This document shows positions 43,889 to 43,904 of a stretch of 64,000 bases of DNA, in pieces. Origin of the DNA: Escherichia coli (GTDB lineage Bacteria; Pseudomonadota; Gammaproteobacteria; Enterobacterales; Enterobacteriaceae). The stretch is taken from assembly GCF_009931435.1 (NCBI RefSeq), contig NZ_CP043414.1; one strand, 5' to 3'. Below the pieces are notes generated by a model that saw only the letters and a program-made list of their open reading frames with translations, searched no databases and was not told where the DNA came from. The position numbers and the translations under genes were made by a program. Numbering within the stretch: the stretch's first letter is position 1; every line of letters starts with the position of its first letter.

Positions 43889-43904
43889 CTGTCGATACGT
43901 ACAG
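43889..43904. promoter_or_regulatory. LexA (SOS) box CTGT-N8-ACAG upstream of ydjM
   Basis: ctgtcgatacgtacag lies 17-32 bp upstream of the ydjM start codon. Confidence 0.6.

Follow-up and report, generated by a model that had tools for sequence, protein, structure and literature searches.

The tandem LexA operator of ydjM in Escherichia coli: sequence, scores and conservation in the Enterobacteriaceae

Introduction

Does the palindrome found just ahead of ydjM in Escherichia coli mark a LexA operator, and if so, how is this operator arranged around the promoter of the gene? The initial annotation of the stretch of DNA under study (64 kb in length, hereafter the window) described the palindrome as a LexA box and suspected a second, degenerate box in the adjoining AT-rich stretch. 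ydjM is an established gene of the SOS regulon. One review includes it, as an inner membrane protein, in its table of the SOS regulon (PMC6590174), and another credits Fernandez de Henestrosa et al. 2000 with an experimental report of tandem LexA sites at ydjM (PMC4951493). The tandem operator is therefore already documented, and its regulation is textbook SOS regulation and not new. Here, we give sequences and scores for the two sites, describe their fixed spacing and conservation, and use these data to weigh how the operator might work and what else might be encoded in this short region.

Materials and Methods

The gammaproteobacterial SOS box was defined as the core CTGT-N8-ACAG (at a minimum CTG-N10-CAG) inside the 20-bp consensus TACTGTATATATATACAGTA. 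A symmetrised count matrix was derived from 23 E. coli LexA operators described in the literature, with the ydjM sites excluded, and each 20-mer of the window was assigned a Berg-von Hippel heterology index (HI). The 23 training sites span HI values from 2.2 to 11.7, and operators known to bind LexA range roughly up to 12-13. For most other SOS genes our HI values are near the published ones (PMC11228462), e.g. 2.2 vs 2.1 for umuDC, 4.8 vs 4.8 for dinI and 7.9 vs 7.9 for symE, which supports the training set. For comparative purposes, each species was represented by one genome, and protein-guided scanning yielded 80 ydjM loci belonging to more than 25 Enterobacteriaceae genera. Together with the window, these make 81 upstream regions.

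Results

The gene and its start codon

The locus contains the following genes and signals:

43282..43872, minus strand: ydjM CDS, 196 aa, inner-membrane protein and putative metal-dependent hydrolase (b1728 in K-12)
43880..43884, minus strand: Shine-Dalgarno-like GTGAG, 7 nt 5' of the ATG
44008..44027, minus strand: terminator-like hairpin after hxpB (yniC), with a 7-pair stem including 5 GC pairs, followed by CTGGTTCTTT
44035-44703, minus strand: hxpB/yniC, neighbour gene
41758-43149, minus strand: tcyP/ydjN, neighbour gene

The genes yniB and yniA are also nearby, and the whole neighbourhood corresponds to the 1.81 Mb region of K-12 in reverse orientation. The product of ydjM matches the Pfam family PF04307 (YdjM) with 123.8 bits, for a cut-off of 29 (E 7e-36). 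The longest open reading frame would start 12 nt upstream, at a GTG at 43884. Other genera have ACC or ATT in place of this codon, which also overlaps the Shine-Dalgarno-like GTGAG, and we conclude that ydjM really starts with the ATG at 43872. This ATG and the codons that follow it are invariant. The hairpin found after hxpB would insulate the promoter of ydjM from upstream read-through.

The segment from 43282 to 44040 has counterparts at 99% identity or more in only 65 of 5423 E. coli records, the rest being 95-99% identical, and the YdjM protein is 99% identical to its counterparts in E. whittamii and Escherichia sp. E1V33. Judging from these similarities, the E. coli lineage of the window seems somewhat divergent at the ydjM locus.

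A bona fide SOS box and a weaker neighbour

The reported 16-mer, CTGTCGATACGTACAG, occupies positions 43889-43904 (the letters of the window at these positions are ctgtcgatacgtacag), i.e. 17-32 nt 5' of the A of the ydjM ATG on the minus strand. It is an exact CTGT-N8-ACAG, as the initial annotation had it, and the sole such pattern in the window. The distance to the gene also holds since the RefSeq start of ydjM is identical to the one used here. Taken alone, the bare core is not significant and gives no evidence of function: a single occurrence stands against 0.65 expected in 64 kb, and at least one was found in 48 of 100 dinucleotide-preserving shuffles of the window. Since the core occurs at chance frequency, we used the matrix of the full 20-mer instead. 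The three best matches of the window are:

30808..30789, minus strand: rank 1, cho box (a training site), CACTGGATAGATAACCAGCA, HI 6.47
43906..43887, minus strand: rank 2, LexA box 1 of ydjM, TACTGTACGTATCGACAGTT, with its core at 43889-43904, HI 9.28, 0.07 expected per shuffled window
43924..43905, minus strand: rank 3, LexA box 2 of ydjM, weak and distal, CACTGTATAAAAATCCTATA, HI 12.05, 0.55 expected per shuffled window

The matrix scan that the initial annotation proposed thus places the two ydjM boxes second and third in the window. Box 1, a bona fide SOS box of the gammaproteobacterial type, matches the core exactly, and its HI falls in the range known for LexA-binding operators. This HI is close to the 9.0 given for the K-12 ydjM box by Courcelle 2001, as cited in PMC11228462. 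Box 2, which reads tataggatttttatacagtg on the plus strand, fits the core in its distal half only: the distal ACTGTAT is intact and contains the CTGT, whereas the proximal half is a degenerate CCTATA in which CAG is changed to CTA. Its HI is borderline, still inside the range. The two boxes end 14 and 32 bp ahead of the ATG. They directly abut and have the dinucleotide TA (2 bp) in common, and from the shuffle rates the chance that a given site has a neighbour as good as box 2 no more than 30 bp away is about 5e-4. The suspicion of a second, degenerate box was well founded, as box 2 is the second ydjM site printed at -52 of b1728 in an earlier work (PMC4576408).

Two further candidates were rejected. 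The 20-mer at 41341-41360 (HI 12.8) is within the range of the shuffles, has no gene start downstream and was treated as a chance match. The other, the weak CACTGGATAGATTATTAGCA at 45433-45452 on the minus strand (HI 14.2), also scores within the shuffle range. It lies where yniA ends, in the gap between the convergent genes yniB and yniA, precedes no gene start and is probably due to chance as well, although 16 of its 20 bases agree with the cho box.

The cho box is the second known SOS box of the window and lies in the following context:

29888-30775, minus strand: cho (ydjQ) CDS, 295 aa, GTG start
30789-30808, minus strand: SOS box, 13 bp 5' of the GTG start of cho (ydjQ)
30883-30925, minus strand: ES036/CssrF sRNA, beside REP-like sequence and close 5' of the cho promoter

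The ES036/CssrF element is one of three Rfam matches that pass the gathering scores in the window. The other two lie elsewhere:

54794-54918, plus strand: Phe leader (pheM)
58759-58917, plus strand: STnc540

Regulation of ydjM by LexA in published data

An absence of LexA-dependent regulation is contradicted by published data. Exposure to AZT raises the expression of ydjM 2.5-fold, and in a background carrying the non-cleavable lexA3 allele expression is 8.6-fold lower (PMC11228462). A time-course transcriptome of the SOS response shows ydjM rising up to about log2 2.6 (PMC11002266). In Salmonella, ydjM has two boxes, with HI values of 9.12 and 12.85, located 14 and 32 bp from the ATG, and it is induced 2.11-fold by nalidixic acid (PMC8072944). 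These distances are the same as in the window.

The operator is also identical in K-12: both boxes occur there with the same spacing, equally far from the ATG and ahead of the same gene. In the aligned segment (43861-44034) the two sequences differ at 43934, 10 nt 5' of box 2, where the window has T and K-12 has C, and at a few further positions nearer hxpB, none of them in the operator.

Could the palindrome nevertheless have arisen by chance and have no regulatory role? The frequency of the bare core, as given above, is what this reading has in its favour. It is countered by the score of the 20-mer, which is far above chance, by the induction data just cited (PMC11228462, PMC11002266, PMC8072944) and by the conservation of box 1 in every orthologue examined, with substitutions of the kind that LexA would allow. 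We regard a chance origin as so improbable that it can be set aside.

Conservation of the operator

K-12 MG1655 has both boxes unchanged. Among 5426 complete E. coli genomes, at least 4038 contain the exact 38-mer with both boxes; this count is a lower bound since megablast requires a 28-bp exact word. Among the 81 upstream regions, box 1 matches CTG-N10-CAG in all 81. CTG, CAG and the A preceding CAG are invariant, and variation is confined to the central 8 bp, i.e. to positions that matter little to LexA. Such conserved arms around a variable centre are the pattern expected for a LexA operator. Of the 81 regions, 78-79 retain the distal CTGTA of box 2, always with an offset of 18 bp from box 1, and the junction of the boxes, CCTATACTG, is invariant.

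Variants do occur within E. coli, and substitutions in the ydjM LexA site have been noted before among lineages of the species (PMC3444427). The two point variants that we inspected, one at position 13 of box 2 and the other at the centre of box 1, both affect positions of low information. A larger change was found in strain NIPH17_0036 (locus L083), where a 7-bp deletion (AAATCCT) in box 2, aligned to positions 43906-43912 of the window, removes the degenerate half-site and alters the predicted -10 described below. This could be a natural mutant of the operator and promoter, or an assembly error.

A predicted promoter at the junction of the boxes

A strict consensus scan of positions 43700-44200 found no sigma-70 promoter. 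After this null result we wrote a graded hexamer score, which uses approximate base frequencies and is rough. From the candidate that scores best in most regions we infer the following promoter elements:

43903..43908, minus strand: predicted -10, TATACT, spanning the point where box 2 meets box 1
43926..43931, minus strand: weak putative -35-like element, TTCCGT, 17 bp 5' of TATACT
43895..43897, minus strand: predicted transcription start, 6-8 nt 3' of TATACT, within box 1

TATACT is invariant in the 81 regions, and in 76 of them it is the -10 of the sigma-70-like promoter with the highest graded score. This promoter scores 7.7 bits in the window, given the poor -35 of E. coli, against 12.1 bits at two loci from Enterobacter and Raoultella (L029 and L080), which have a better -35, TTCACA, located 16 bp 5' of TATACT. 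The CTTCCG at the -35-like element is largely conserved across the upstream regions. Taken with its flank (43903-43910, minus strand), the predicted -10 is CCTATACT in 81 of 81 regions. Sigma-S favours -10 elements of this kind, in which TATACT is preceded by a C at -13, and the invariant -13C/-14C would also fit the use of this factor.

The overlap between the predicted -10 and box 2 complicates the interpretation of the latter. It may be that only box 1 is functional, box 2 being free of LexA in vivo and conserved for its promoter elements: CCTATACT would be a -10 with its -13C/-14C, and ACTGTAT either a spacer or the -10 of a weak second promoter, GTTACA-17-YACTGT. The proximal half of box 2 is indeed CCTATA and not ACAGTA, and it is invariant (81/81) exactly at the -10 TATACT. 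The score of box 2 is borderline, with about one such site expected in every two windows at the rate given above; RegPrecise holds one ydjM site alone; the second was termed 'novel' when it was printed (PMC4576408); and GTTACA-17-TACTGT reaches 6.0 bits in other genera. Since box 2 lacks the proximal CAG and the invariance of CCTATA is explicable by the -10, its sequence is no proof that LexA occupies it. Yet, a promoter spacer requires no CTGTA, which is kept in nearly all regions in a fixed 18-bp register with box 1. Moreover, the third-best LexA match in 64 kb abuts the second-best, the same pair of boxes is kept in Salmonella (PMC8072944), and the tandem sites are described as experimentally reported in the review section cited above (PMC4951493). 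On balance, we find it unlikely that box 1 acts alone.

The position of the promoter itself might also be questioned. Genomic SELEX with the RpoD holoenzyme placed a constitutive promoter in the yniC-ydjM spacer of K-12, to which CTGAAA-17-ATTAAT was assigned (PMC3946193). If transcription came from the corresponding CTGAAT-17-ATTAAT of the window (about 43996..43968), the boxes would act as a roadblock 3' of a farther-upstream promoter instead of occluding the -10. But the resolution of SELEX is coarse and these hexamers were chosen by eye (PMC3946193), and the stretch is absent from the top-scoring promoter candidates of the window. Outside Escherichia this stretch is not conserved, but the operator module is: the upstream gene is a different one in other genera, stopping about 20 bp short of the conserved block described below, and yet the operator is retained. 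A roadblock thus appears quite improbable, more so than a single functional box.

A conserved block upstream of the boxes

Another conserved element precedes the operator:

43936..43953, minus strand: conserved upstream block, 18 nt, just 5' of the LexA boxes, AAAGAGTTACACCGTCAC

Over 80 distinct upstream sequences of Enterobacteriaceae most columns of this block are at least 90-98% conserved, and sequences farther 5' are not alignable. The block (43953..43936) is too far from TATACT to serve as its -35, and neither the predicted promoter nor LexA accounts for it. By-eye comparison with the consensus sequences for CRP, CpxR, the marbox, sigma-E, sigma-32 and the UP element revealed none that fits. 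It could be the site of an activator or of a second regulator, or else the -35 of the weak alternative promoter, GTTACA-17-YACTGT, for which the graded score is only 2.4-6.0 bits.

Discussion

We are highly confident that ydjM is controlled by a tandem LexA operator, in which the predicted -10 and transcription start would be occluded until LexA is cleaved. Box 1, a complete palindromic operator, would bind one LexA dimer. Box 2 has just one good half-site, so a second dimer probably fills it with the help of the dimer on box 1. With both 20-mers occupied, LexA would extend over the core promoter, starting just 3' of the -35 and spanning about -28 to +10. The -10 TATACT and the predicted start (about 43896) would then be occluded and RNA polymerase would be excluded in undamaged cells. 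Upon DNA damage, RecA filaments would stimulate the self-cleavage of LexA, the operator would be vacated and ydjM would be transcribed.

This arrangement has parallels among known operators. The tandem boxes of the lexA promoter are two complete palindromes about 21 bp apart, centre to centre. At ydjM, in contrast, the centres are 18 bp apart, the 20-mers overlap by 2 bp and the distal box has one good half-site. Common to both promoters are two adjacent LexA sites, an arrangement thought to tighten repression (PMC4951493). Colicin operators resemble that of ydjM in having a strong and a weak site overlapping at terminal positions, and differ from it in being plasmid-borne, whereas the ydjM operator is chromosomal. 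Their cores overlap more deeply, with about 15 bp from centre to centre. For colicins, cooperative binding of LexA has been shown (Gillor 2008, as cited in PMC4951493). Within the window, there is a parallel in cho (ydjQ), which belongs to the same set of later-identified SOS genes and also has a gammaproteobacterial LexA box close 5' of its start codon. There, the place of the tandem pair is taken by a single box, which is of the CTGG...CCAG type and whose HI is lower (6.5).

The conserved upstream block raises the question of whether LexA is the only regulator of ydjM. Expression of the membrane toxin TisB increases ydjM RNA (bioRxiv 10.1101/2024.02.22.581605), and this rise, together with the conservation of the block, makes a second regulatory input possible. 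One might speculate that the block is the site of a second regulator and that ydjM integrates the SOS response with another signal, e.g. membrane stress. This is a tentative idea, to which we give somewhat more credit than to a single functional box, and which is still rather doubtful.

The operator marks ydjM in this genome as a classical member of the SOS regulon, which has little significance beyond correct annotation. Our analysis makes two small additions to what was known: the design of a strong box and a half-site with the -10 across their junction, whose spacing is unchanged over more than 25 genera of Enterobacteriaceae, and the conserved block AAAGAGTTACACCGTCAC upstream of it. YdjM is a poorly characterised inner-membrane protein, and knowing exactly how its gene is controlled could help in the design of functional experiments.
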